The translations under genes were made by a program, and so were the position numbers. Source: Candidatus Omnitrophota bacterium (GTDB lineage Bacteria > Omnitrophota > Omnitrophia > Omnitrophales > JACQQS01). From it: 64,000 bases of DNA. The stretch spans positions 9,254-73,253 of the forward strand of contig JACQQS010000062.1 of the NCBI GenBank assembly GCA_016206925.1. Reading direction: 5' to 3'. The notes beneath the pieces were generated by a model. It saw only the letters and a program-made list of their open reading frames with translations, was not told the origin of the DNA and made no database searches. Numbering within the stretch: the stretch's first letter is position 1; every line of letters starts with the position of its first letter. Positions 1,794 through 61,300 of this stretch are shown piece by piece.

Positions 1794-3026
1794 TTACGGC
1801 CGGACATAAAGCGCCGCACCGCCGATCCCCATTTCGGTTACCCGGAATGTAACGGTTTCATCATCAAATGTCACAACGTCGTCCATAGCGGGATCGTCAT
1901 CATAATCATATCGGCCCGTTTCGTCAAATGTGAGCAGATCAAATCCTTTGGCAACCGGCGAAAAGACGGGGCGTGTAAGCACATTTTTCCCTACAGGATA
2001 TTCAATGACATAATCGATTAAAGCCGGCTGTTCCTCGATCAAATCAAACTTAAGGCGCGCCAGCCAGGGCTGTCCGGTTGATGACTCAATTTCAAAAGTC
2101 AGCATGGATTTCTCTTTAACGCCCGTGATGTTTACGATTGCGAGCGATCGAATCGCCCTGCTGTTTGGGATAACAACCTCGGTGCCTTCCGTCAGGACAA
2201 TTCCGGATGCGGCCCAGCCCAAATTTCTCATGTTCATGAATTGCATGATGGTCTTTTTTGTCGCTCCCTTTTTCCCGCTGATTAAAACCTTTGCCGCGGT
2301 AATTTGCTGCCGTTGTTCGTCTTCGAGAAATTCTTCTCCGGCCAGCGGCTGAATTTCCAGATTAACGTTGGAGAAATACTGAAATCGAGTGTCCATAAAC
2401 GAAACGCCAAAACTATTTTTTCCGAGGACTTCCGAACTTCCCAGGTAATCACGGGTAATTTCCCCTTTCGCATCGTCCCAATGGATGCGCATGATCGTCA
2501 GCGGATTTTTTAGGTGATCCGGCCGGTATATCACGCGCAGCTGTGCGCCGTCCGGCAATTCATCCAGGATCTGCACGCGGTCATGTTCTTCCGGCGGGTC
2601 TTTTGCGTCGCCGGGCAAAAAAGCAGTCCGAATATTTCTAAAAGAATCAGAATCTTCTGCGCGAATTTGTCCTTTGGGGACCGGCGAGCCTTTAAGGTAT
2701 GGGTATGAAAGAGGAAATGTTTGCTCTTCGTTCCGAAACCGGTCGGGCTCGAAATATTCCATAATAAGCGGCACAAAGCCGATGGAATGTGCGGAAGCTT
2801 CCGTAACGACCAGAGCATCTACGATGCCGGGGCTTACGTAATCTCCTTCACTGATTTGATTGACGAGCGCCGGGATCATCGCTTCAATAGAGGCCATTTC
2901 ATCACCAAATCGCCAGGTTTCCATGGCGGCGTTAAAAATCATGCCGATGGCTCCTCCCACGATGGTTGTTAGCGTTATTGCAATCAGGAGCTCTACCAGC
3001 GTTACGCCGTTCTTAGCAATTTTCAT
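1794..3026 (-). CDS. large (410 aa) prepilin-type N-terminal cleavage/methylation domain protein; minor pilin or pseudopilin, possibly tip-associated
   Basis: N-terminus MKIAKNG|VTLVELLIAITLTTIVGGAIG matches the class III signal (G followed by hydrophobic stretch with Glu at +5) followed by a hydrophobic helix. Last gene of the pilin cassette. Confidence 0.7.
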   Translation of the reverse strand: MKIAKNGVTLVELLIAITLTTIVGGAIGMIFNAAMETWRFGDEMASIEAMIPALVNQISEGDYVSPGIVDALVVTEASAHSIGFVPLIMEYFEPDRFRNEEQTFPLSYPYLKGSPVPKGQIRAEDSDSFRNIRTAFLPGDAKDPPEEHDRVQILDELPDGAQLRVIYRPDHLKNPLTIMRIHWDDAKGEITRDYLGSSEVLGKNSFGVSFMDTRFQYFSNVNLEIQPLAGEEFLEDEQRQQITAAKVLISGKKGATKKTIMQFMNMRNLGWAASGIVLTEGTEVVIPNSRAIRSLAIVNITGVKEKSMLTFEIESSTGQPWLARLKFDLIEEQPALIDYVIEYPVGKNVLTRPVFSPVAKGFDLLTFDETGRYDYDDDPAMDDVVTFDDETVTFRVTEMGIGGAALYVRP

Positions 3027-3041
3027 AACTTCCGGATAGTT

Positions 3042-3479
3042 TTATGTATTGACATCTTCGATCAATGTCGCTAATGAGACCAGCGGTTCGGTCAGGATTT
3101 CATCTTTAAAGACAGCAACATGAATTTTAAGCGGATCGGTTCCCTCGTCCAAATACTGGTGAATGCGCCAACGGGAACCATTCAACTCGATGGGAGGTTC
3201 ATCGGCCAGAGGAAAATAAGCATCTCCGCGCGCTATCAACTGGTTTTCAGAAAGCCGGAAGTTTCGAATTCTTTCCATCCCCTCTCTCGCCAGCGCTAAC
3301 GCCGTGTTCATCTCGGAGATGTAATTTAACTGCGCCACGCTTCGCGAAAACATTTCCATGCAGGGAAGGAAAAAAATGGAAAGAATCAGGAGCGTGAGAA
3401 GTATTTCCAGATACGAGAAGGCGTAAAAATTATTGAGTTTGCCGGGCAAATGCGATTTGAATCGTCCGCGTCGTATCAT
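3042..3479 (-). CDS. minor pseudopilin (GspH/I/J-like), prepilin-type N-terminus
   Basis: 145 aa. ...NNFYA|FSYLEILLTLLILSIFF gives a Glu at +5 after a probable Ala cleavage site, then a hydrophobic helix. It overlaps the upstream pseudopilin gene by 50 nt. Confidence 0.6.
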   Translation of the reverse strand: MIRRGRFKSHLPGKLNNFYAFSYLEILLTLLILSIFFLPCMEMFSRSVAQLNYISEMNTALALAREGMERIRNFRLSENQLIARGDAYFPLADEPPIELNGSRWRIHQYLDEGTDPLKIHVAVFKDEILTEPLVSLATLIEDVNT

Positions 3480-3879
3480 TTACGATTCCCTGGGAGGTCA
3501 ACGTTCGCTCGATCGGATGATAAACAACTTCGAACACGCCGTCGTCAAAAGGTGTTTCGGATACGTTTCCCGGTCCGTTACTGTCGGGATCGTAATCCGT
3601 CTTAAGCTCATGAATGGCTTGGCTGATGCCCGCCTCAGCTACGTAGAATGCTTTGAGCCGGTCATAATCGAGCATCATCATTTCCGAGCGCCAGAAAACC
3701 ATGGAAACCAGTGCTGCGCCGAACATAGAAAGAGAAACTAACCCGATGAGGGCTACGAGAAGTATAGCGCCGCGGCGATTTGACAACAAACGGTAACGAG
3801 TAACGCGTAACGAGTAACGAGAGCGAGTAGACGCAACGCAGGCCTTGCTAACTGTACTATTGAAATTACGTCTGCTCAT
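3430..3879 (-). CDS. pseudopilin-like protein with GspK-type N-terminus (no Glu+5)
   Basis: The ORF runs from ATG 3879, but a GspK-like N-terminus ...RRGAILLVALIGLVSLSMFGAALVSMV appears only after a 35-aa leader. The true start may be a TTG near 3786-3789. A heptamer repeat array sits in the 5' region. Confidence 0.5.
   Translation of the reverse strand: MSRRNFNSTVSKACVASTRSRYSLRVTRYRLLSNRRGAILLVALIGLVSLSMFGAALVSMVFWRSEMMMLDYDRLKAFYVAEAGISQAIHELKTDYDPDSNGPGNVSETPFDDGVFEVVYHPIERTLTSQGIVNDTTRTIQIAFARQTQ
3793..3820. repeat. tandem heptanucleotide array (GTAACGM)x4
   Basis: Read directly: gtaacga gtaacgc gtaacga gtaacga. Lies inside the annotated 5' coding region of ORF 3430..3879. Confidence 0.8.
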
Positions 3880-3902
3880 GTGGAAGTGAAAGGCTGCTTA
3901 TT

Positions 3903-3930
3903 TCGTTACCCGTTACCTGTTACTTGTTAC
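3903..3930. repeat. tandem heptanucleotide array (NNGTTAC)x4, the inverted complement of the 3793-3820 array
   Basis: Read directly: tcgttac ccgttac ctgttac ttgttac. Lies in the 50-nt spacer between the gspG-like stop (3933) and the ATG at 3879. Confidence 0.8.
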
Positions 3931-3932
3931 CC

Positions 3933-4376
3933 TCACCATTTGCTTGGTATTTCCCCTTTGTAGTCCCCCCAATCCTGATCCAGCTCATCGGTAATGTCCA
4001 CCAGCACTTTCGCCTTGTCCGTTATGTAAACCCAACCACCGTCATTCGGGACAGGATCACTTAGCGGCAGATCATCGTAAGTATTATTTCCCTTTTTATC
4101 ACTGATCAATTCGGCCGGCAGCTCCTCGAGGTACTCTTTTTCAATGCCGACGTCGTTATACGTTTCGGTGACCAGCTCTTCCAGCGATTCGGGATAACGG
4201 CCTTCCTTTGCACGAAACAAAGTGATTCGCGATCGAAGCATATCCAGATTGCTCTTTGTCGCCGCAATGCGCGCTTCCGAATCAAAACCGATGAAATTGG
4301 GTATGACCGCCATGGCGAGAATGGCCAGGATGCTTACGACGATAAGAATTTCTAATAGGGTAAATCCTTTTTTCAT
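3933..4376 (-). CDS. gspG: type II secretion major pseudopilin GspG-like (type IV pilin fold)
   Basis: MKKG|FTLLEILIVVSILAILAMAVIPNF is a canonical GspG/PulG N-terminus; 147 aa. Confidence 0.8.
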   Translation of the reverse strand: MKKGFTLLEILIVVSILAILAMAVIPNFIGFDSEARIAATKSNLDMLRSRITLFRAKEGRYPESLEELVTETYNDVGIEKEYLEELPAELISDKKGNNTYDDLPLSDPVPNDGGWVYITDKAKVLVDITDELDQDWGDYKGEIPSKW

Positions 4377-4440
4377 TTGCCCTCCTATGTCATTGCCTAA
4401 ACCGTAGGCGGGGTACTGCGCGGTCGGCGCGGCGCCCTGG

Positions 4441-4746
4441 CTACGCAGACTGCGGTCTTTTCATCACATAGTAGCCGCCGGTTTGCGTTGTAACCAGCGC
4501 TCCGAGCTCCCAGCCATCGCGGCCAAGCTCATTTAATTCGTTTTCAAATACCGGTAATTTGGCATCGGTTAGGCTTATCACCCGGTACTCCCACGTTACT
4601 TTATCCACTCTTGCTTCGATGGTGCCCGTCCACTTTAACCCGCCGAGAAAAGCGTACGCAGTGGCCGACATAAACACGATCAAAAGTATAGCTGCATGTA
4701 TCTTGTAAAAAAAATTTATTTTCATATTTACCTCAAGCTTCGTCAT
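4441..4746 (-). CDS. small membrane-anchored protein, DUF4177-like C-terminus
   Basis: 101 aa. N-terminal TM (AAILLIVFMSATAYAFLGG) and C-terminal ...LNELGRDGWELGALVTTQTGGYYVMKRP, which resembles the DUF4177 signature. Confidence 0.45.
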   Translation of the reverse strand: MTKLEVNMKINFFYKIHAAILLIVFMSATAYAFLGGLKWTGTIEARVDKVTWEYRVISLTDAKLPVFENELNELGRDGWELGALVTTQTGGYYVMKRPQSA

Positions 4747-4797
4747 CCCCGCGAAAGCGGGAATCCAGGATTTAGATCCCCGCTTTCGCGGGGATGA
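4742..4797. repeat. 56-nt palindromic REP-like element (20-bp perfect inverted arms GTCATCCCCGCGAAAGCGGG / CCCGCTTTCGCGGGGATGAC)
   Basis: Read directly. Lies in the spacer between gspF/pilC-2 and the DUF4177-like gene. Each arm contains a CCCGC-GNRA-GCGGG mini-hairpin. A related copy is at 14425-14482. Confidence 0.75.
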
Positions 4798-4812
4798 CCA
4801 CCATTGTTTCTG

Positions 4813-6030
4813 TCATTTTCTGAAGACCTTTACCAAGTTGAATATCGGCAGCAGTACGGAAAGCGCGATAAATGCCACAACGCCTCCCATCATCAACAGA
4901 AGCACGGGCTCAAGCAGGGATGTCAAATTATCAACGGTCGTGGTCACCTCTATATCGTAGAAGTCCGCGATGTCCGTCAGCATTTGATCGAGTTTTCCGG
5001 AATCTTCGCCCGCGGAAAGCATTTGAATAACCATCGGCGGAAAAAAACCGCTCATAGCCAGCGGTTCCGTTAATTTCTTGCCCTCGGTAATTTGCCCCTG
5101 TACATTTTGAAGCACTCGGACAATGACCAGATTGTCCATGGTCTGCTCCACAATTTTTAAGGCCTGCAGAATGGGCACGCCGCTTCGGATTAGCACGGCC
5201 AGTGAGCGGGTAAGCGACGCAATGATCGCTTTTAGGATCAAATCACCGCCGATCGGGAGTCTGAGAAAAAATAAGCCGATGTAGTAACGGCCGGTTTCTG
5301 TAAACCAGAGCCGGCGGAGGGCAAAACCGGCGGCAAGAAGGGCGATTAAGATGAGCCACCAGAATGTTTGAAGGAAACCGCTAAAGGACAGCAGTATTTT
5401 TGTCGGAAGTGGCAGCGGAACATCCGAGGAAAGAAAAATCTGACTAAATTGCGGGATGATTCGGACGAGAAGGAAGACAACGACGGCAATACCTGCCAAG
5501 AGAAGCACGATCGGGTACGTAAATGCAGAGCGGACTTTTGCGCGAAGCTGCTGTTCACGTGTGCCCAATTCGGATAATCGTGTAAGCGATTCATCAAGAC
5601 CGCCGGTATTTTCCCCCACCTGCACCAGGTTGATGAAAAGGTTTGAGAATATCTTGGGGTATAACGCTAAGGCTTGGGAGAGTGCCCGGCCGGCGCGGAT
5701 TTCATCAGTGATATGCCGGAGAATTTGCCGGAGCTTGTCAATCGGTGTTTGTTCTGCACAGCTTTCAAGCGCCGTCAGAATTGGAATGTTGGCGCCTAGC
5801 ATGGCGCCTAACTGCCGCGTGACCACGAGTACTTCTTGACGCGGAATTCCCCTGATCCGCTGCGTAAACCGATCGAAGGCTTTTTCGATAGGGTGCGGTT
5901 CTGAAATGGAAATGACATTATAACCGAGCCGTTTTAAGTTCTGTGCAAGTACCATCCGCCCATCGGCTTGCACCGTTCCCGCTAATAATGACCCAAATCG
6001 ATCACGTGCCCGATACCGGAATTTCGGCAT
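4813..6030 (-). CDS. type II secretion / type IV pilus inner-membrane platform protein (GspF/PilC family), copy 2
   Basis: 405 aa with two T2SS-F-like repeats and three predicted TM regions. Paralogous to ORF 19350..20567. Confidence 0.85.
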   Translation of the reverse strand: MPKFRYRARDRFGSLLAGTVQADGRMVLAQNLKRLGYNVISISEPHPIEKAFDRFTQRIRGIPRQEVLVVTRQLGAMLGANIPILTALESCAEQTPIDKLRQILRHITDEIRAGRALSQALALYPKIFSNLFINLVQVGENTGGLDESLTRLSELGTREQQLRAKVRSAFTYPIVLLLAGIAVVVFLLVRIIPQFSQIFLSSDVPLPLPTKILLSFSGFLQTFWWLILIALLAAGFALRRLWFTETGRYYIGLFFLRLPIGGDLILKAIIASLTRSLAVLIRSGVPILQALKIVEQTMDNLVIVRVLQNVQGQITEGKKLTEPLAMSGFFPPMVIQMLSAGEDSGKLDQMLTDIADFYDIEVTTTVDNLTSLLEPVLLLMMGGVVAFIALSVLLPIFNLVKVFRK

Positions 6031-39916: not shown

Positions 39917-42900
39917 CTATGCGGCTTTGGCAAAAACTTCAACCATTTCAATTGCGTCACTGATCATCTCAAGCACGTTTGTCGTGCTGAGGACGCGAAT
40001 CCCGATTCGCTTCATCTGCTCAACCCCAGCCATAGGAAAATTTTCTCCCGCCAGCAAAAGAACGGTATTAGGGTGTAGCAGGGCATATGCCTGTAGCGTG
40101 CCTAAAACATTTTCATGCCTTCCGCTTAATGCCGCAACGATCGGGTCGTTATAGTGGTTCGCTAAAGAAAAAGCATCGGGGTCATCGGTGACTATAACAA
40201 TGTCGTCCAAAGGAACGCCAAAAACGCCCGCAACGATTTCCCGTTGGTTCTGGGAGAGCTCGGGTAAGCCGATCAGATAAATCTGTTTAAATCCGTCAAG
40301 ATGGAAGACAAAATTAACCGTCCGCCGCGCAGATTTTCCGGCTTCAAGAATTTGATTTAGAAACAAGGAATCATCGATAATGAGGGAACCTACTTTTTTC
40401 CCCGCCGTGCCGGGTAAAAGAATTTCACCGAGTTCCACGCTAACTGCATCCATTGCCTCCTGGCCTCTTTCGCGTATTATGAGCGGATTACTGCCGGCAA
40501 CTAATTTCAAAGTTTGGCTTAGTTCTGATCCGAAACCAGTACCATCTGTCGTGCCGGCGTCGGTGTCAAAACTGCCGGAATGCTTGTTCAAAGCTGCCGT
40601 GAATATTTCGTTGTCAACAAACCTGAATTGTTTATCACCATCGACCGAAGCTTCAATAAAAATCTCTTCGCCCTCAAGCCCCAGCCGTGCGTAGTATTTT
40701 TCTTGCAAGGCAAAACTCTCTTTAAAATCCACTGCGCGAAGCCTGCCCAGTTCACCGCCGCGGGCTCCTGCGTTAAGAAAATCCTGATGAATTTGTAGTA
40801 CCACGTCCCATGGCTTATTTAAGGCGAACAAGTCAGCTGTTGTTTCGCCCAGACGGCCCCACGCGTCAAAATATGCTCCTATAAGCGGCGCGATTTTAAA
40901 ATCGCCTTCAATCTTTAGACGGGATATTGCAGCAAACTGGTGAATTCTTCTGACCGCGGGTTCGACATCGCGGAGCCATGCGGCCGGAGCCTTGGAGATT
41001 AGATTATTTGATCGAATGGGGGCAACGCGGAATTGCATGCGAGTGGCCTGGGAGGTTGTGTTAATATCAACCACGGTGAATACCTCTGGGCGAGGAGGTG
41101 AGTAAAACGGGATCTGATAGATTCCCGCATATCGAGCAGGAGTTGGAAATTGAAATTGGGACAAAGTTCGTATATCCGATCTCTTTTGTTCCAGCATACG
41201 CCTGGCTTCCCTAAAGTCGAAGGGCTCGCCCCACTGATTCAGAGGCGGGTAACCTTCTTTGTTGATTAACTCTTCTGCAATATCAATTAATTCAACCTGA
41301 GCTTGGACAAATCGTTCAGCCGCTTCTCCGCTGTCCGGATTATAAACGTCGCCGCTGGTTGTTGAATATATTGACTCACGCGTAGCATCGTAGCCCATGT
41401 CAAGTCGGTTTCGAAGCAGTTGGTAAGGCAGATAGTGTTTCCACAAGACATCGGAAAGATCATCAATAACATGGGACAAAATTTGGATAGGATCGGTGTG
41501 GTCTTTATATCGAAATCTATCCGGTCCCGCGCCTCGATCTATTTCACGGAGCGGCTGAAAAAGCTCACGCAGTAAATCGCTATTGGCGACATATCTTGAT
41601 TCTAAGAGGTGATCAAAAAAGGCACTCAGCCAATCTTGAAGGAAATCTAGTTCCGGTATCGGGGCTTCATAGGAATCTTTGCCAAATTCCCTCGCTTGAT
41701 TGAAATCGTAAGCCACAAGTTGAAGGTAATAGCCAAAATATTTTTTAAAACTCTTTAAGGGATCCCGCTCATTGAACAAATCAATATTGCTGCCCGCATC
41801 GGTATAGTAACCTGTGGCCAGCGTATTGTCCGGATTCAAGGCGATATGGACGTTCGCAATGTGATGCGTAAGAATTTCTGCAGCGTTCCAACCCATCTGT
41901 TGGGCAGCCGATCCCGGATCGAAATCTTCGCCACCACCCTTGAAAATATGCCCTATCCGTTGATTTGTCGGAGAAGCTCGGCCAATAATTTCAAAGCGCG
42001 TGTCGTTGCCCGGATAACGGAACCGCAAGCGAAAAAGTGCGCGCGGCGCAGCGCCGTTAAAATAGGCGTCCGTTCCTACGAGTCGCAGCAAGTGGATAAC
42101 GTCTCCTTCGCCGCCAGCTTGATGACCCGGATAAAGCGCGCCGAGATCGACGCGCGTGACCACATGTTGCCCGGCTTCGTTTTTATCTCCGGCGCCGCCC
42201 TGAACGACGCGCCCGCCTGTCGCGCGAATGTTTTCGCCTCTACCGCCCATGAAAGGCCCCGCTGATTTCAAGTCAACGATAAATTCAGCGCCCATATCTG
42301 AAACAATCAGGACAGGTTCTCCCGAATCCATCCAAAAAAGCATTCCACCCCGTCCCGGAGCTACTGTATCCGGGTCGAGGTTGACTTCCATCATGTATCG
42401 AAGTTTGGTTTGTGCTTCGCCATCGACGGTGGAAAGAATCTTGCCCTGCCCCCACACTTCTTTTGTAAGCCATTCACGTAATTCCCAAGGCAGCCGCATA
42501 AAATCCTCATATAATTCCACCTGGAGATCTTCAACGGGCACGAGGTGGAGAGGCACTTCAAGGGAGAATTTCGTCCACACATCCGGAATAGTCCGCTTGC
42601 TCTCCTGCATGTCGCCGACCCACTTTACCGTAATGCGATTGGAGTAATCATCTGGATCTGTATGGCGTTGCATTCGGCCGTTATGATCCCTTCGGTAAAT
42701 ATGACTTACAAGGAATTTACCTTTGAATCCCAGCTTATGAGCGCGATCTTTAGCCCAGTCAGGTACTCGGGGCGAGCGTTCACTTATTCGAAGGTCGGGT
42801 CTTTCTTGCTGCGTGCGTTCATCGCGCGCAATATCGGACCGCACCCGATCCAGATGGGGTGAAGTAAATAATGCTTCTAATGATGCACCGGTTTGGCCAA

Positions 42901-45900
42901 GGATTCCATGCTGCATTGTAGCGAGACCTTGAGTTAAACCGATTACGCCGGATGCAGGAACGTCGGAAACTATTGTTGACATCGTCTCACCTAAACTAAT
43001 TGCCAGCTTACCTTGTGCCCTTAATGTGGTGCTAACAGATCTAACGACGGGCGACAAAACTTTCGACTGGAGAAATTCTTCGGCCTTAATTTTTGAGTCT
43101 TCTTGCCACGAGAAAAGATCGTCCTCAATATCTTTAATCGAACGCGTTGGCTTCGGAATTGAGGAATCTGCGGCATCTTGATGAAGCCTTGCGTCAGCCA
43201 ACTCTTTTTCCAACTCGGCTGTGTGCCGGCGTCTTCCGGTGGCGTACAGTAAATTCTGCGTAGCCTTTTGCCTGTCATACTCATACCTAAGACGCGAATT
43301 ATTTATCTTCTCCCCTTCGTTGGCAAACGCCTTCCAATAAGCCAGCTTGGCCCCTGCAGTTCGGATCGCCTGATCGATTTCATCCTGCCGGCTAAGGTCA
43401 GGCTCCGATTTCATGGCCCCGAGCTCTTTCAGGAGCGAAGTTAGATGGGCAATTCTTTCATTCGCAGTGATTTGCTTGAAAAGAGGCTGCGAACCGTTAT
43501 AGATATGCCCCTTTCCGAATGTTTCAATCCGCCAGTCTAAAGCGAGAAATATGCGGTAATCCGCATCTGAAAAGAAATCATAGGTATCAACAATTATCTT
43601 GTCTTCAAGACCCATCATGTGCGCTACGGCTTTTATAGGGTCGAGGCCCGGGTACGTTTTCCTCCGCGTCCCCGCATCGGGGTGTTCGCGGCGTTTATGA
43701 ACAGGTTGATTGGAGCCGACGTATTCAAAATGACGTGTAGCAAAAACCAGTGCGTCGAGTTTCGGATGGAAGAATTCCAGCGGATTTTCCACCTTGCGAA
43801 AGGGTATCGAATTAAGGTCATCTTGGTTCAGGCGACCGCGCGCTTGCGATGATGCGCCTCTAGGTTGCTGTAAGGCAAGTTCTGGCCAAAAATCAGTATA
43901 AGGATCTGTGGCCTCTACGCGGCCTCCGAAATGCGCCATTTCGCGGACGACATGCTCTGAACCACTGTGCTTTGTGTTGCCGGTTCCTTCTTTATACCCT
44001 GTTCCGAGAACGCCTACCGTTATTTCCGAAAACTGCACATGCATTTTGCCCGTAAATTGATTAAGCAGCTTCCACGTGACGTCTTTTGCTCTCTCCTGGA
44101 GCATGGATGATGCGAGAAGCCGCGATTGAAATATCCGAAAGATTTGGTCATCCTCCATTTCGAAGTAAGTTCTTAACCCAACTACTATTTTCAAGAGTGC
44201 TTCAGGAGTACAGCTTCCACCGGGACACATGGAGGGAGCGCGCCGCATTCCCATGCGGGACCTTGGGTGAGCGCGTACAATGCCTTCGATTATTTGAAAT
44301 GCGTCGACCCCAATTACTTCTGCGGTTTTAAGATAGCCATCTAAAATTTCAAGCAAATCGTAAAACCAAGATAGTTCCAAAAGCTTCAAAAATTCAACAT
44401 CCTCGGATACATTCCAGACTTTATAAGTAAAACCGATTTTTTTAAAGTAGCGCTCGAGATCTTCCCGCGCGGCAGGTGAAAATGCGGCGCTCTCCCTTCT
44501 AAAATCTCGTAAGGATCGCAGTTCTTCCGCTCCGGGCGCCAAACGTTGAGGTGAATAGGCTAGGCGGACATACGGTGCGCCACCTTCTTTAGCTTCTGGA
44601 AATCGATCGCGCATTACGCGGTCTATCGCAGGCAAAGCTTCTTTCGACACGAACCCAGGTTGTACCGTGCTCTCGATCACTACAAGAGCGTCCTTGCGAA
44701 TGAGCGAGCCGATGGTTTCAAGCAATTTTGCGGTGGGCTGAGTGTTAATATGGGCTTGCTGAAATGTGCCCCGTGGAGGTGCATGCATTTCCAATTCAGT
44801 CTCTACGAGAACGACATCTGCTACCGCCATCACTTCAGGCAAAAATGTCGCGGCAATTACACCGTCACTGCGCGCCGTGCGAAAATTACGAATCATTTCC
44901 TGGTCGGTAGTTGGATGTGGTAACAGCCCGTCGTTTATAAAGTGAACTGCATATCCGGATCTGGAAGTTGGTCTTTGGTAGGCTATAGAAAAATAGGGCC
45001 GTTCTTGTGCGGAGATAGTTCCGCGGAATCGATTGCCCTCCTGCTGGTCGAGCGGGGCTCTCGCTTCGGATGCCAATGCCATATTGGCTTGCGCCACATG
45101 TCCGGCGCCTACATGGACAGAAATCTCGCGGCCTAAGGCACGCTGAATAACAATCTCAGCCATCAGATTAATCCTCATCTGCTCAAATTCGGCAGCATCG
45201 AAAGGCAGTGTGAACGATCTCCCCTTGGGAGCCGTGGTGAGAGTACCCGCTTCAGGGAGCTGATCCAGACTTCTGTATTCAGGAATCTTGTAAGGGCCGA
45301 GCTTTGTGCTACGGTCGGCTTCAATTAGAGCGACAAATGTATCAATGGCCAATTCCCCTCTTGAAGCGAGAAAACGCGAAAGTTCCATTTCTCCGCTCCT
45401 GTCGGATCCGGGATTAAACCACCGAAGCATGGCTTCTTCCACATCGGTTCGGATAGTTTCAGGCGAGATGGGCGGCGCGTCCGAACCAAAGCCGCGTGCC
45501 ATGCGATCTGTAAGTTCTCTCAAGCGTTCCTGAAAGAACTGTACGGTTGTTGAATTTGCAAATGTTCCATTGCCGATAGATTCAATGCGAACTGATTGGG
45601 GCGACTGCGCATAGTTTAGCCATTGCGAGCCGGATTTTCTCATGCCCGGCGACTCATCACCGCGCCAAAGGATGACATCGGTAGTTCCAGGGAACTGCGC
45701 AAAGCGATCACCGATATCATCCGGGACGTTTAAAATCGGATGTTGCGGGCCATATAATCCGCGCATTACTTTGTTCAAAGGTTGCACGGGCGTACGAATG
45801 AGGATTAAATGCCGTGTGTTAGAAAATTCAGGCTCTGACGCAACAATGGGCAGGAGTTGGCCGCCGTGTTCTTGTCCAATCAATATGATTTTTGGCGGTT

Positions 45901-55300: not shown

Positions 55301-58300
55301 CAGGATTTAGCGTCGCTGCAGCAAGTTGAATTTCCGCATGATGTGCGGACGCTAGAAAACGGTCTCTTCTTTTGGATATGAACTCGGCTAATTTCGAGAA
55401 GCGATCACGCCCTAGAGGTTTTCGGATGCGCGCTAAGGTGACATGAACTACGCCGGGCGCGCCTCCCGTTGGTGAAGTTTTTCCGGCAAGCGCTTTGCTA
55501 AGCTCTGTTCGAAGAGAAACTAGATTTAAGTCACGCACGAAACCTTGAGCGATTAAGCTGCCACCTGGGCTTAGGGTAATTCCCTTCCAATCTATGTCGA
55601 ACGGTTGCGATAACACGATTGCTGAATTTATGTCAGGAATAAGCGCTTGGATGGCGTTGTCAGAAAGGTTAGCATCGTAGACATCGTGCGGAATATAGAT
55701 ACTTAGATGAAGGTTTTCATTTGGTATCCAGAGGATTTCGTCGTTCGACCAAGTAAATTCATAACCCAGGACTTCCTCGTGCATTTCCTTACGAATTTTC
55801 TGTACCTGAGTAATGAATGGTATGGACTCCGACAAGTGTGCGAGGACGTTGGAGGTTTTACCAACGCGAGGATTTCCGTCTTCGTCGTAATGTCTGGGAT
55901 GGCCTGCAAAATCCTTTGGATCAAAATCGCTCCTAGATGTACCAATGTTTGTTAAGTTGTTAAATATTTCATCGTAGCGCTCTAAGAGTTTTTTATTAAA
56001 TTGTTCGATCGTACCGAATCCAGCCGACGATCGCGTAATTAGCGGCGCTGGCGCTTCTGCTGATTCTCCTTCGTGCGGTTGAGGGGCAACTACATCTGGC
56101 GGTTGCGCTGCTTCCCCTTGGGCGGGCGGCGACCGTCTCAAAAACTTCCAAAGCCAAATGGTGAGGAGCAACGTAAGATAGTAGAAGGTATCACTCCCAA
56201 CAACAATTGTTCTGATCGTGGCTGTCTGATGACCCACAAAGTTATATAGTTTTACAAAGCTGTCGGCCATGTTTGCGCTGCCGATCAAGTAAGCACCCCC
56301 GATAAGACCGGCGGTGAGCAGTACTTTTAAGGCGGCAATCGGTGCGACGTGCTTAAGGTAGTAAAGGACGTCACTCTCTTTACGTCCTCCTCCCAGAAGT
56401 GCGTGTTTGATACTTGGATATTCGTTTGTCGTGTGCCAATGGAGGAACATTTGCGTCATAAGTAAGCCCGCGCTGTTCAAACCCATGAGTGCGACAAGAA
56501 CGCGGACGGGATCGGGCAATGTGCCGGAGACGGCAAGCGCAATTACGATAACCACCACTAATATATTGAAAAGGGCCATCCCGGCTGGAAAAACCGGTTT
56601 TGTCTTCGCTTTTATTATTTCCAAGTGAGGACGCTCTCCGGTGAACTCAACCTCGTAGTCTCTGTACCCATTAACCGTGATCACGGCGGTTTTTTTGGCA
56701 CCGTTGTAATCTGTAACTCGTGTATCACGGAGACGGACCGATTGTGTTTCTGGATTATCCGGATCAAACCGATTCAGGGCCGGCTCTAGTTCCGATGTTC
56801 TAATCGAATGATCCCTCTTCTCTTCCAACTCAACAATTGTTTTCGAATCTTGCGTCATAAACAGCAAAATACTCGCTGTGACCAGATAGACCGGAGCATA
56901 TATGAAAAGAGTCGATAGTAAACCCGTTTTTGGCGCAAAACCAAAAAAAGGAATATAGCCAGCAACGGCGGCGACAGCGAGCGGTAACGCCAGCATTAGA
57001 GGAATCATACCTGCGGGCGAAAGCGGCATAGAACCCGAGATCATCGAAAGCCAGAATGCTTTGAACGGATTTGCTGAAGTCTCGCGTCTGTAGTCCTTAT
57101 TCAGCTCCTTCGTCCTGGCGAGCGACATGTTTGGGCGCCCAGCCAAGATACGGTAGATTTGGAAGATCAAACCCTGCCGCAAAGGCTGGGCAGATACCCA
57201 GACGGTCCAAAGATAAAGGAAAATGGAGCTGAGCCAAGGGAGAGCTCCGATAGGTAAGGACATCCATCCGAGCGAAAGCGTGGTAATGACTGCGTCTTGA
57301 TGACTGAGGTAGATGAGGCCCAAAAGAAAGCCTGCTGTAAATAACGGACTGACAACAGCGTGGCGTGAGGAAATTAAGAAATCAATATATTCCCCTTGCC
57401 GAAGGTTCCGGACTTGTTTGCTTACCAGCCGTTCAACGATAGCATGACCAAGCCAAGCTGTTTCAGCTTTTACAATAGTCCACATCGCCTTGCCAAGGAT
57501 GAGGAAAAACTCCAGTGTTTTCACAAGATATGCGATGGTGGACTTTACTAATTCAATGGGGAAGTTAATAATATACCGAATAGCGTTGAGCAGTCTGAAA
57601 GAAATCATTCCAAACGTGATTCTGATAAAGCCGATCAGACCGAGGCCTCGTTCGTACCGGACGACATCATAACGTCCCAGCTCCGGAAGGATGCCTGCGT
57701 TTTGTAACCAGTCCAATATCAATTGATTGTCTTCGTTGCGATAGTCAATTTCACCCCACGATTTCGCAATCCTGCCGCTGGAGAGAACGTACGCAATGCC
57801 GGCCAACACTCCGAGCACCATGTTAATCAGTTCGAAGAACGCCTTACCGAGTTTGGTAAGAAGGATAATTGGAATCATACTGACGAGCAGCAAACTGTCA
57901 GCAATAGGGAGGGGAATAATACTCGGAGACAAGTAAGATCCGCCGCCGATCAAGCTTGGTAAAAGCATATCGCGGAATACGTTCTCCAAACCAAGAAAGT
58001 AAGGTACCCCCCTGGAGTAAAACCCCAGAATCAGATACGCAGAGAAGAAAAGAGCTGTAAACGCTCCGCGTGGCGGGATAAACTTAGAATAAAGCGAGCC
58101 TAAGTCGACCGCTTCATCATCGCTTTCCTCGGTTGATCTGACGTAGGGACTAATGGCGGGTGTCCCGGTTACTGTGTTGTAAATATATTGTGCGAAGCTC
58201 ATGGGAACACCGTAAAAAAGCTTCATGGTTCCCTTCTTCAAGGCTTCCCACTCGCCGCCGATCCAGCGAGTTCCCTGGATAATCATATCTTTAATGGTGT

Positions 58301-61300
58301 AATTCACGTCTTCCCACGCGGCAAGAAAAGGAAGATATGCCGTTTTTGTTATTCCATATTTGTATGAATCTTCAATCTGAGCCTCGGCCGGCAGTATTTC
58401 GCCGCCAAAGAGCCGCGTGCGGTAAGTTATGCCGCCCAATGTGATTCTTTGGCCTTGCAAGCTCTCGCGGAGAAAGTCTTTCCGCTCGAGGCCATTCCAC
58501 ATCTCAGGAAATTCCCTTTCATTCCGTTTGGGAGCCGAGCGTCCAAGGATGATTCGTTGGCCACCGATGGTTAATGCGTATTCGTAGAATGACCGTCCCT
58601 GACCTTCCGGATCTTGAATGGAGTGGCCCGCATGCCCGGTATCTGGATCTATCTCAAATTTCACGTCATAACCGATGTACCGTTTCCTTTTGTGCTCGAC
58701 GGTAGGTTGATCAATAGTGAAGTCTGTAGTTTGTTCGAGCTTCGCCGTTTCTTCTGGTGTCAGAATCCAGCTACCGTCTTCGCTGATGAACACGCGATCC
58801 TGCGCAGTCATGATCGTGCCCACGCGGCGATTCTTCGCATCGTAGAGGATGATACGGGGATCCATAAGTTTTCCGATGAAATCGGCCATGCGTCCAATGA
58901 ACTTGCCAAACATGCTGAAACGGCCGCGGGCAAATGTTTCGCCGACGGGCAGAAAATAAAGCATTTCGCGCGCGACTCCCGGCATCCAGCTTATGGGTGT
59001 GAAGACCGTGTTAAAAGCGCGTAAGAATGGCTGGAACATTGAATAACTGCGGTTGGTCCAATGCTCCGAAATTTCCAATGTCGATCGCACAATTCCATCA
59101 GGCCAAAGATTGTCACCGTCACTCACAATTTTATATGGATATCGCCCGCGGAACTCGTAGAAGGTTGTATCTATTAGGGTGCGGTTTCCTTTCAAAATAG
59201 CTTCGGTTACCGTTGTGATCTGACGTTCGGAATTATCGGGATCGGCTACCCCACCCTTGTATTTTCCAGTCAATCCGGCCTTCTGGAGATCCCACACATC
59301 TTGCATTTCACCTTCCTGCATTTTGATCAGATCCTTAATGAATTGCCGGTAACTATACCCTTTAATGTCATACGCAACATTCAGCGGGAGCCCAAGTTTC
59401 TTTAAAGCCTCTTCACCTTCTTGCGGAGTCTGAAACGTGTTTATAAATTGATCAACAAGATCTCCGTCAGAGATACGAGGCTCTTCAGCGCCAAATCCTG
59501 CGGGCGGGCGGTTCTGACCCAAGCGTTGTTCCAAGGCGGCACGCAATTTGGGTATATTGATGTAACCCCAGGCAGGCAGTGCAGGATCTTTAACAAAGTT
59601 ATCGCGATACGCTTCGATGTATGTTAGGTTTCCGTAACGGTCGTAGATAAATTCATAGCTAACGACTCCAATTTTTGCTGATTTGGGATTTCCATTTGGG
59701 CGGCGTGTAATATCTTCTGGTTTAGCTTTTTTTAGAATCGCATTTTTACGCCACGGCGCAACGCGTCGCGTATGATGCAGTTCATTCCTTCGCGTGTATT
59801 CCTCGCCTGTATATTCCGAAGCATATAACTGACCTCGAAATCCAAGAATTGTTGCATCGTCATCCTGGCCGGATTTTCGCAGGTGGCGGTTGGTACGGTG
59901 GATAAACTTGAGATCCCGCTTGAACTGGGCAATGTGGGCGCGCAGAACGGCTTCGACAAAGGCGCCGGTTCCCTGTGTATTTGGAATATGTGGCAGGTCT
60001 TTTTGAATCTGCTCGAAGATTCCAACCCACAAGCCTACAGCATCGTGAAATGAGCCAAAATTCTCTTGAAGCGATTTTTCTGTCTTCTCATCAATTGGCC
60101 GAACCGATTCGCTCAATTGTCTCCAGTCATCAGGTGTGAGTACCGCGCCAGCACGCTGTCTTAGATGGGCGACGACATTCTCAAGGGAAGTTTCCATAAT
60201 GCTTCCAATTTTTTCACGCATCTCTTCCCTCACACGCGCCGTTTCCATCAAAACGGAGAAATTGTTGCTTGCATCCACGATAGTTGTTGTAAGAGTATGA
60301 TTTGGATCCGCATTGCCTAGGTGCGTGCCGTGTCCCTGTTTCTTAAGTAGTTCGGCCATATCCTCTGTAGTCTCGGAAATCCTGTAGAATTGACCCATTG
60401 TTGCATGTCCAAGCGGTATTGCGCTGACAAGCACACGTTTTCCGCCAACCACTACGCGTTTAGCAAAACTGTGTGCCTTAAAATATGCGCGCCGCCGTTC
60501 CGACCTGTCTCTTTCCGGTTTCGCATCGTCCGTCGTTTTGTTCATCGACCCATATAAAATCGAACCGAGAATGTAGGAGAGGAATCCCGCAACGATATCT
60601 CCGAGATTCCAGTAGAGCGGAAATGTCACAAGCGTTCTGAGAGCCGCGGCCTCAAAATTGGAAATCTCGGGAACCATCAGTATCCAAGACCAAATGGTTG
60701 TGATCAAAGCAAATCCGATCGAGACAGGGGCATAAAAGAAAAGAAAGATGGGACCTGTAGTTCGCAGCGCCCTCCAGTTCTTGTATCGATAGAGCGGACT
60801 GATAGTCCATTTGAGTATTTTTAACCCAATCAATGCAGAAATGAAGTAGGAAGGGTAAAGAAATGCCAGGATGGGCTGGCCGTAATGCTCGGTCATTAAC
60901 TGCGGCAGTATCGTGGTAAGCAACCCCACGCTGACAGCTTTTAAGAATCCCGGAAGGAAGCTGGGCAAAGCGCCATACATCAAGCCTATGAATGTGGAGA
61001 AAATCAACGCACCCACTATTGTCAAGATGGTATCGGGGAGAAGTCGGTAATTTTCAAGATGTTTCTTAATCTGAGCCGTTATATGGAATAGCCGCTGGAT
61101 TCGATACTCACGGTGCGTAATCAAAGTATGTATGTATTTTAATAAAAGCAAAGCGAACGGAATCGAAATGGACAGTATAGCCCCAAGGTTCAGTCTTTGA
61201 ACTCCGGCCGCCGTCTCAAGACCTTGTTTTATGTCCACCGGCATCAAAGGAGAGATGAAATCGAACAAATGTCCTGTGATTCCATGAACCAGATAAATTC

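Follow-up and report, generated by a model that had tools for sequence, protein, structure and literature searches.

The 64,000-nucleotide (nt) stretch of contig JACQQS010000062.1 analysed here (hereafter the window), which a protein search assigned to a metagenome-assembled genome (MAG) of Candidatus Omnitrophica, contains two inverted arrays of a GTAAC heptamer at the junction between a gspG-like major pseudopilin gene and a PilX-like minor pseudopilin gene. This locus raises the question of how such an element came to lie between two pilin-type genes of one operon and what it does there. The reading that we favour, tentatively, is that the palindromic heptamer microsatellite acts as an intercistronic mRNA stem-loop that would uncouple the translation of the two cistrons and possibly also stabilize or delimit the major-pilin segment, a function that we infer from its structure and position. 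Some consequences of the element are certain: the ancestral coupled start no longer works, translation of the second cistron must begin at a new site, and a stem of about -50 kcal/mol lies between the cistrons. The two genes concerned are as follows.

3933-4376, minus strand: gspG-like major pseudopilin/pilin gene, 147 amino acids (aa), stop TGA at 3935-3933
3430-3879, minus strand: PilX-like minor pseudopilin open reading frame (ORF), 149 aa from ATG 3879, N-terminal signature RRG↓AILLVALIGL

The first-pass annotation of this DNA, which had named a gspG gene and a minor pseudopilin gene, was roughly right. The upstream gene matches PF07963 N_methyl (28.9 bits, cutoff 21.2, E = 7.7e-7) and PF08334 T2SSG (21.7 bits, cutoff 21, E = 2e-4), and it matches the equivalog model TIGR01710 at 4e-12, below the cutoff of that model. 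The downstream assignment is sub-threshold, the alignment to PF14341 PilX_N being full-length but weak (E = 0.44, 11 bits, cutoff 25.5).

Structure of the heptamer element

The arrays, the hairpin arms that they form on the mRNA and the loop between them can be read directly from the sequence.

3793-3820, forward (+) strand: (GTAACGM)x4, units GTAACGA, GTAACGC, GTAACGA and GTAACGA
3903-3930, forward (+) strand: inverted complement array, units TCGTTAC, CCGTTAC, CTGTTAC and TTGTTAC
3903-3931, minus strand: 5' arm on the mRNA, GG followed by GTAACAA (3930-3924), GTAACAG (3923-3917), GTAACGG (3916-3910) and GTAACGA (3909-3903), starting 2 nt past the gspG-like stop
3821-3902, minus strand: hairpin loop (the 82-nt spacer), holding an in-frame TAA (3900-3898) and the ATG at 3879-3877
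3792-3820, minus strand: 3' arm on the mRNA, units TCGTTAC, TCGTTAC, GCGTTAC and TCGTTAC followed by C, with about two degenerate units upstream, to 3829

Tandem Repeats Finder placed period-7 arrays at 3789-3829 (6.1 copies, four of them clean and about two degenerate) and at 3904-3932 (4.1 copies), and an inverted-repeat search returned arms of 29 nt each (3792-3820 and 3903-3931), with 86% complementarity and a separation of 82 nt, so that the two inverted arrays described in the first pass were confirmed by both methods. The motif GTAACNNGTAAC occurs six times in the window, always within the two arrays, where shuffled sequences lead one to expect 0.03 occurrences. All eight units share an invariant 5-nt core with two variable positions at strict spacing. 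With tandem 7-nt units above chance and a nearby complementary array on the other strand, the element is a heptanucleotide simple sequence repeat (SSR), and its placement is intergenic, near the upstream stop and between co-directional minus-strand genes. The 64-kb window holds one pair only, in contrast to the many dispersed copies of the Xanthomonas arrays.

On the mRNA, the end of the gspG-like gene (AAA UGG UGA) is followed by GG, the units GUAACAA, GUAACAG, GUAACGG and GUAACGA, then AAUAAGCAGCCUUUCACUUCCAC and AUG; the 3' array (UCGUUAC, UCGUUAC, GCGUUAC, UCGUUAC) runs into CGU UUG UUG UCA AAU CGC CGC GGC. Since each GUAAC unit holds UAA and seven is not a multiple of three, three or more units put a stop in every frame; the 5' arm indeed has TAA in all frames and so is not translatable. 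No stop codon interrupts the 3' arm in any frame; this arm covers codons 20-29 of the ORF running from ATG 3879 to 3430 and ends 3 nt before TTG-TTG (3789-3784). The placement reported in the first pass therefore holds: one array (3793-3820) lies within the first 30 codons of that ORF, and the other (3903-3930) lies within the space, measured here as 53 nt, between the gspG-like stop at 3935-3933 and ATG 3879.

When the minus-strand RNA from 3932 to 3790 was folded, the arms were paired in the predicted structure, with a free energy (dG) of -50.3 kcal/mol and a z-score of -5.0, and none of 200 shuffled sequences equalled it. The arms are thus predicted to form a stem of about 29 bp closing an 82-nt loop that contains AUG 3879. 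The long imperfect mRNA stem proposed in the first pass is supported by this fold, the complementarity over 29 nt being slightly better than the 22 of 28 positions noted originally.

Several known types of element were sought at the locus. Rfam covariance models over 3000-5000 gave no relevant match (a chance-level FtrB hit lies at 4710-4816, E = 0.11), a sigma-70 scan placed no promoter within the element or the spacer, and a sigma-54 search gave matches at chance level, none of them near the pilin gene. A Rho-independent terminator was rejected, as the terminator scan called none here, the loop measures 82 nt and nothing more than CGUUUGUUGU follows as a tail.

Inverted repeats of 29 nt around a short segment bearing a start codon might also suggest an inversion switch, as the first pass had proposed, or a mobile miniature inverted-repeat element, either of which would flip or move the 82-bp segment together with its ATG. 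We consider this explanation very improbable. A Pfam scan of the ORFs in the first ~22 kb revealed no recombinase, invertase or transposase domain, all domains identified in the neighbouring ORFs being of the pilus, secretion, two-component, ParA-like or glycosyltransferase type; for synapsis, 82 bp is a very short segment; and an analogous element at a related locus (L140, see below) has a loop of only about 7 nt. The window and the one other assembly of this organism (Logan, SRR12113385, which may share the project of the MAG) are identical and have the segment in the same orientation. No second copy of the spacer or of the whole element was found in the window or in the approximately 200 loci compared, all of them pilus operons, and direct reading revealed no target-site duplication or flanking direct repeat; the first unit is, moreover, continuous with the ancestral junction sequence. 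The lack of a second copy and of a flanking direct repeat also rules against a mobile element of the miniature inverted-repeat transposable or repetitive extragenic palindromic (REP) type.

Origin of the element at a stop/start junction

The closest orthologues have neither element nor spacer at the gspG junction. L002 and L003 (79% aa identity) have AAATGGTAACAAGC at this position, with the ATG of the next gene overlapping the TGG-TAA of gspG, and in L006 an overlapping GTG serves as the start. Among 29 metagenomic loci with a gspG-like upstream gene (ending in ...PSEW), the distance from its stop to the codon for R36 is 35 nt or less in 22. The overlapping stop and start of the closest orthologues and the tightness of these 22 loci indicate that tight coupling is ancestral, from which it follows that the 158-nt gap in the window is an insertion. 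A 9-mer, GGTAACAAG, is common to the L002 junction and to the start and first unit of the 5' array in the window, and this identity points to growth of the array in situ, out of the stop/start overlap. Judged from these junction comparisons, the element is a lineage-specific expansion inside the stop/start junction, in which the arrays probably grew by replication slippage and the inverted copy probably arose by template switching. What is left of the older arrangement is still legible in the window by comparison with L002, L195, L198 and L007.

3913-3939, minus strand: remnant of the ancestral coupled start, ATG 3939-3937 overlapping the gspG TGG-TGA (ATGGTGA)

This ATG is in frame with ATG 3879, and its reading frame is closed by the TAA at 3915-3913, within the third GTAAC unit, and by the TAA at 3900-3898.

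The first-pass annotation had proposed that orthologues be compared for differences in repeat number; the closest ones turned out to lack the repeats altogether, which is half of what it had named as grounds for abandoning its interpretation. Exact-protein look-ups for population variants returned only the single, identical Logan contig (P0001 gave no record), and the protein search found no near-identical relative except the NCBI call of the same gene, and no length variant on record. Among pairs of near-identical related loci (L194/L199, L153/L162 and L131/L136), a search for indels of SSR units found only coding indels, and the pairs held no informative arrays.

Start of the downstream protein

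An alignment of 15 homologues of the PilX-like protein is conserved only from G37, directly after R36, the first 35 codons being unconserved and the upstream parts unrelated in length and sequence. Every aligned sequence has the RG↓AILL motif apart from P0011, which was called from a start downstream of the motif, and RG↓A resembles the prepilin-peptidase site of GspK/PilX-type pseudopilins. If it is such a site, the N-terminal extension would be a removable leader; the cleavage there is putative.

The start has been called in three ways, as M52 by NCBI (98 aa), as ATG 3879 by the Logan gene caller (149 aa) and, as a further option, as TTG 3789 or 3786. The in-frame candidates upstream of the motif differ in what they leave before the conserved glycine: ATG 3879 gives a 35-aa extension, and TTG 3789 or 3786 would leave 5-6 aa before the glycine and hence a canonical leader of 6-7 aa. 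A start at M52 would cut off half of the conserved hydrophobic segment. A core Shine-Dalgarno sequence precedes 9 of the 28 long ORFs of the window and neither ATG 3879 nor TTG 3789; given such weak use, its absence cannot choose between the two. Depending on this choice, the 3' arm lies either in the unconserved N-terminal leader or, if TTG 3789 is the start, in the 5' untranslated region. The first-pass statement that the arrays bracket the start codon is accordingly true of the position of ATG 3879 on the minus strand, and otherwise depends on which of the candidate starts is used. For annotation, the 5' array is of direct use in that it proves the upstream overlapping ATG to be unusable.

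Proposed role of the hairpin

Long inverted repeats are rare in the window. Only three were found in 64 kb, and two of them, the heptamer hairpin and a REP-like hairpin, flank the unit formed by a DUF4177 gene and the gspG-like gene; a separate folding scan of 100-nt segments likewise returned only three strongly folding ones. The canonical intrinsic terminator found elsewhere in the window represents a different type of structure from the heptamer stem.

4738-4802, minus strand: REP-like hairpin with a perfect 26-bp stem, GTCATCCCCGCGAAAGCGGGGATC..., dG -54.1 kcal/mol, z -9.0
about 15990-16035, minus strand: canonical intrinsic terminator, AGCCAGGGUAGCGAAAGUUACCCUGGCUUUUUUAUU, with a short loop and a U-tract

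The REP-like hairpin, with arms GGTCATCCCCGCGAAAGCGGGGATC...GATTCCCGCTTTCGCGGGGATGAC, lies between the stop of the T2SSF-family gene (4813) and the start of the DUF4177 gene (4746); a related half-site is found at 14460-14479, and the orthologous loci have no hairpin at the T2SSF/DUF4177 junction. Logan contig L001 ends inside this hairpin, as expected of a multi-copy or palindromic element. The terminator is situated in a region that holds the end of a long + strand ORF (14360-15985) and, opposite it, minus-strand ORFs.

The scarcity of long inverted repeats, the presence of a REP-like one across the DUF4177 and gspG-like unit and the difference of the heptamer stem from a terminator together favour an intercistronic stem-loop. 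In the mechanism that we propose, the element would abolish the ancestral translational coupling, as the overlapping ATG would open only an 8-codon dead-end ORF. The downstream cistron would then initiate independently without a Shine-Dalgarno sequence, either from AUG 3879 in the loop or from UUG 3789 at the base of the stem. The hairpin could in addition protect the 3' end of the gspG-like segment, itself preceded by the REP-like hairpin, or direct its processing, and the net effect would be a lower output of the minor pseudopilin relative to the major subunit. The element may have persisted because the sequence upstream of the presumed prepilin-peptidase site (G37) would be dispensable. Should the proportion of major to minor pseudopilin indeed be set by the hairpin, a coupled operon would have been re-tuned by the growth of a microsatellite in place, with no new regulator.

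Enlarged junctions and arrays in related pilus operons

The junction corresponding to that of the window is enlarged in further related operons, and 7 of the 10 enlarged junctions, comprising the window and six related loci, fold strongly in comparison with shuffled sequences, although the inserts are unrelated in sequence.

Window: inverted (GTAACNN)x4, z -5.0
L140: (TGTGTCG)x5 then (GACRCAA)x5, an inverted heptamer with a loop of about 7 nt, z -4.3
L007: inverted (GTCNACN)x4, z -2.9
L141, L190, L195 and L009: GC-rich or REP-like hairpins, z -5.0 to -6.7
L143, L198 and L200: inserts without significant structure

For the window, L140, L141, L190, L195 and L009, none of 200 shuffles folded as well. 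Two of the six structured inserts in related loci (L140 and L007) are inverted heptamer arrays, with units differing from that of the window. The coding frame is stop-free across the insert in 6 of 10 insert-bearing loci; for the remaining two frames the figure is 1 of 20. This indicates that the inserts of those lineages are translated as an additional leader, beginning at a start codon that is situated at the gspG stop or overlaps it. In L009, the gspG-like gene (1981-2428) is broken by an in-frame TAG after 65 codons, for which a pseudogene, a sequencing error or recoding are all possible.

Short-period arrays are not confined to this junction. Tandem Repeats Finder detected many arrays of period 7-8 in 88 related loci (222 kb), all of them pilus operons. 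Three consecutive pilin-type genes of L198 carry paired inverted 7- or 8-nt arrays between the ATG and the cleavage motif (436-501, 942-1004 and 1355-1425) with the frame open, and in L160 one element of about 70 nt and period 8 occurs twice in the operon (622-687 and 1488-1556), one copy being inside a confirmed leader and the other upstream of a gene that is cut by the contig end. Pfam places the N_methyl motif of these two loci at residues 25-51 instead of 1-26. In a second, AT-rich clade, arrays of three to six copies of the octamer AATTGGTN keep a conserved position, some 10-20 nt ahead of the ribosome-binding site of the PilX-like gene, and recur in front of the following pilin gene; their copy number differs between relatives.

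L159: AATTGGTN array at 1387-1439
L163: 1281-1303
L167: 1399-1442 and 3130-3158
L174: 1196-1232 and 2932-2968
L182: 1140-1184
L184: 1397-1427

Other spacers of the second clade hold AGTATCG/AGTATAT heptamer arrays.

These arrays bear on the phase variation put forward in the first pass, according to which slippage in the 3' array (3793-3820) would shift the frame with each 7-nt step and thereby switch the PilX-like pseudopilin ON or OFF, provided that ATG 3879 is the start. The proposal is reasonable in kind because related operons hold arrays of a unit length that is not a multiple of three in cleaved pilin leaders: besides the three genes of L198 and the confirmed one of L160, whose second copy stands upstream of the truncated gene, L140 and L007 have one open prepilin leader each with such an array, and a perfect (CAGTCGT)x4.4 array lies inside a PilB-like ORF of L138. 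The window itself offers a unit that is not a multiple of three, an array within the first 30 codons of the longest ORF and a pilus component as target. For the window we nevertheless consider a switch of this kind improbable, because each array has only four imperfect units, with at most two identical in a row. The 5' array cannot gate any frame, the inverted arrangement is left unexplained by the model, the sole second assembly is identical, the protein search yielded no length variant, and both arrays would lie outside the ORF if TTG 3789 were the start.

A broader proposition is that in Omnitrophica-like pilus operons the 5' boundary of pilin genes, whether at the junction, in the 5' untranslated region or in the sequence encoding the cleaved leader, is a dedicated site for genome-specific palindromic microsatellites with units of 7-8 nt, which would constitute a previously undescribed control layer. 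We regard it as unlikely in this general form. If it were true, the arrays, which in some operons are identical before at least two pilin genes and which are kept in frame, would serve as contingency switches for single pilins or as RNA 'punctuation' setting subunit stoichiometry, and the window would be one instance. Structured inserts, often built of heptamers, recur at the boundaries of pilin genes in related uncultured bacteria, and this recurrence points to a mutational hot spot linked to cleaved leaders or, alternatively, to a simple evolvable device controlling pilus composition.

The same heptamer in other phyla

A scan for (GTAACNN)x4 or longer, with one genome per species, found at least 120 such stretches in Bacteroidota, Cyanobacteria, Chloroflexota, Planctomycetota, Patescibacteria and other phyla, none of the matches listed being titled Omnitrophica. 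Among the matches listed, 40 of 120 arrays are accompanied within 250 nt by an inverted partner, compared with 4 of 120 in a reversed-sequence control, and 32 of 34 inverted GTAAC-array elements are intergenic, most of them starting 0-6 nt past a stop and many lying between co-directional genes, a placement that agrees with that of the heptamer arrays of Xanthomonas (PMC4692102). Examples are found in L074 (1941-2054), L081 (4684-4757) and L112 (7138-7312).

Such a distribution, together with the invariant 5-nt core and strict spacing of the eight units, might point to a trans-acting factor, that is, an oligomeric protein binding RNA or DNA with one subunit per GUAAC/GUUAC heptamer and regulating translation of the minor pseudopilin. 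A 7-bp period is, on the other hand, unfavourable for protein binding along one face of duplex DNA. The hypothesis has a precedent in the oligomeric RNA/DNA-binding protein proposed for the TAACTGA repeats of Beggiatoaceae (PMC4679880), and one array module does stand before at least two pilin genes per operon in L160, L168 and the second clade with its AATTGGTN arrays. The window has a single site in 64 kb, the heptamer is wholly different in sequence at the same junction of related genomes, and no candidate binding protein was identified; we judge such a factor to be highly improbable.

Hairpin or tolerated expansion

The main rival to the intercistronic hairpin, possible although rather unlikely in our estimation, is a neutral expansion that is simply tolerated: a microsatellite prone to slippage would have persisted, together with its inverted copy, at an insertion-tolerant position made up of an intercistronic junction and a cleaved leader, with any effect on expression being incidental. 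Neutrality agrees with the absence of the element from the closest orthologues, with the unrelated sequences of the analogous inserts, with the stop-free coding frame that lets inserts simply be translated as leader, and with the displaced N_methyl motif of L198 and L160. It also agrees with the abundance of heptanucleotides, reported to be the commonest of the long SSR classes among prokaryotes (Mrazek 2007, cited in PMC4679880). Against it, a stem of -50 kcal/mol at a formerly coupled stop/start must alter downstream translation, two of the three long inverted repeats of the 64 kb bracket the major-pilin segment, most of the enlarged junctions are strongly structured, and inverted pairing of GTAAC arrays in other phyla exceeds the control tenfold among the matches listed.

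Several observations weigh against the favoured hairpin. The closest relatives manage without the element, which is therefore young and could be neutral. Three mismatches fall in the outer half of the stem, only the inner two pairs of units matching, and direct reading found no compensatory variation between the arms, positions 6-7 of the units not co-varying. The position of the insert relative to the start varies among loci, lying wholly downstream of the ATG in L198 and L160 and straddling it in the window, which argues against a single conserved translational mechanism, and the true start codon in the window may be ATG 3879, TTG 3789/3786 or M52. Sliding-window folding moreover revealed hairpins at other junctions of related operons, and in L138 and L139 the perfect (CAGTCGT)x4.4 array (2374-2404), identical in the two samples, lies in frame in the linker between the MshEN and T2SSE domains of the PilB-like ORF; both observations fit tolerated positions as well as function. 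With these points taken into account, the intercistronic hairpin remains the explanation towards which we lean.

Operon context

The operon is of the type IV pilus/type II secretion system (T2SS)-like kind. Downstream of the PilX-like ORF lie a PilV-like ORF, a 410-aa ORF whose N_methyl match is sub-threshold (20.5 bits, cutoff 21.2) and a gene for an extracytoplasmic function (ECF) sigma factor. Upstream are the T2SSF-family gene, a secretin gene, a PilM-family gene and two ORFs without assignment, together with a PilS/PilR-like two-component pair and PilC- and PilB-type genes. The remainder of the window includes two giant minus-strand ORFs, at 52344-63780 (about 3812 aa) and 39917-47939 (about 2674 aa).

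Comparison with known systems

Intercistronic stem-loops and REP elements are known to set differential expression within operons, as exemplified by the malE-malF REP sequences, the Rhodobacter puf operon and papB-papA of the pap operon. The arrangement in the window resembles these systems in that a stable hairpin follows a highly needed cistron and precedes low-abundance ones, and in that its operon also contains a REP-like hairpin. The heptamer stem differs in that it is built of microsatellite units and closes an 82-nt loop, belongs to no recognized REP family and has no Rfam match; a corresponding role in the window is putative.

SSR contingency loci, such as the CTCTT leader repeats of Neisseria opa and the poly-G tract of pilC, form a second group of comparison. 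The phase-variable heptanucleotide tracts of Haemophilus influenzae comprise 8-38 perfect units (PMC2651432). The window shares with these loci a unit that is not a multiple of three, a position at the 5' end of a surface-organelle gene and, if ATG 3879 is the start, a location in a part of the protein that would be removed, whereas its four imperfect units fall short of 8-38, the arrays form an inverted pair and no copy-number polymorphism was observed.

A third group comprises the direct repeats of the heptamer TAACTGA that precede start codons in Beggiatoaceae, Cyanobacteria and Bacteroidetes, which are abundant per genome (169 sets), with one inverted case reported, and whose forward orientation has stops in all frames, limiting their placement (MacGregor 2015, PMC4679880). 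These repeats and the cyanobacterial short tandemly repeated repetitive (STRR) heptamers are similar to the window arrays in having 2-6 copies just upstream of a start without a Shine-Dalgarno sequence, a TAAC core and stops in all forward frames. The TAACTGA arrays differ in being direct rather than inverted, abundant per genome and of another unit sequence.

A counterpart in architecture is provided by the GGGAATC heptamer arrays of Xanthomonas campestris and X. axonopodis, of which 70-75 convergent inverted pairs per genome, with few copies per array, were described (Rehm et al. 2015, PMC4692102). They lie on average 28 nt past the upstream ORF, mostly between aligned ORFs, and are of unknown function (PMC4692102). 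Tandem 7-nt units, a close convergent pair, an intergenic site near the upstream stop and co-directional ORFs are common to both. The GTAACNN unit of the window is, by contrast, not G-rich and has no G-quadruplex potential, only one pair is present in 64 kb, the host belongs to Omnitrophica and one arm reaches into an ORF. Inverted heptamer SSRs are thus a kind of element that has already been described, and what is new here is the unit, the host and the position.

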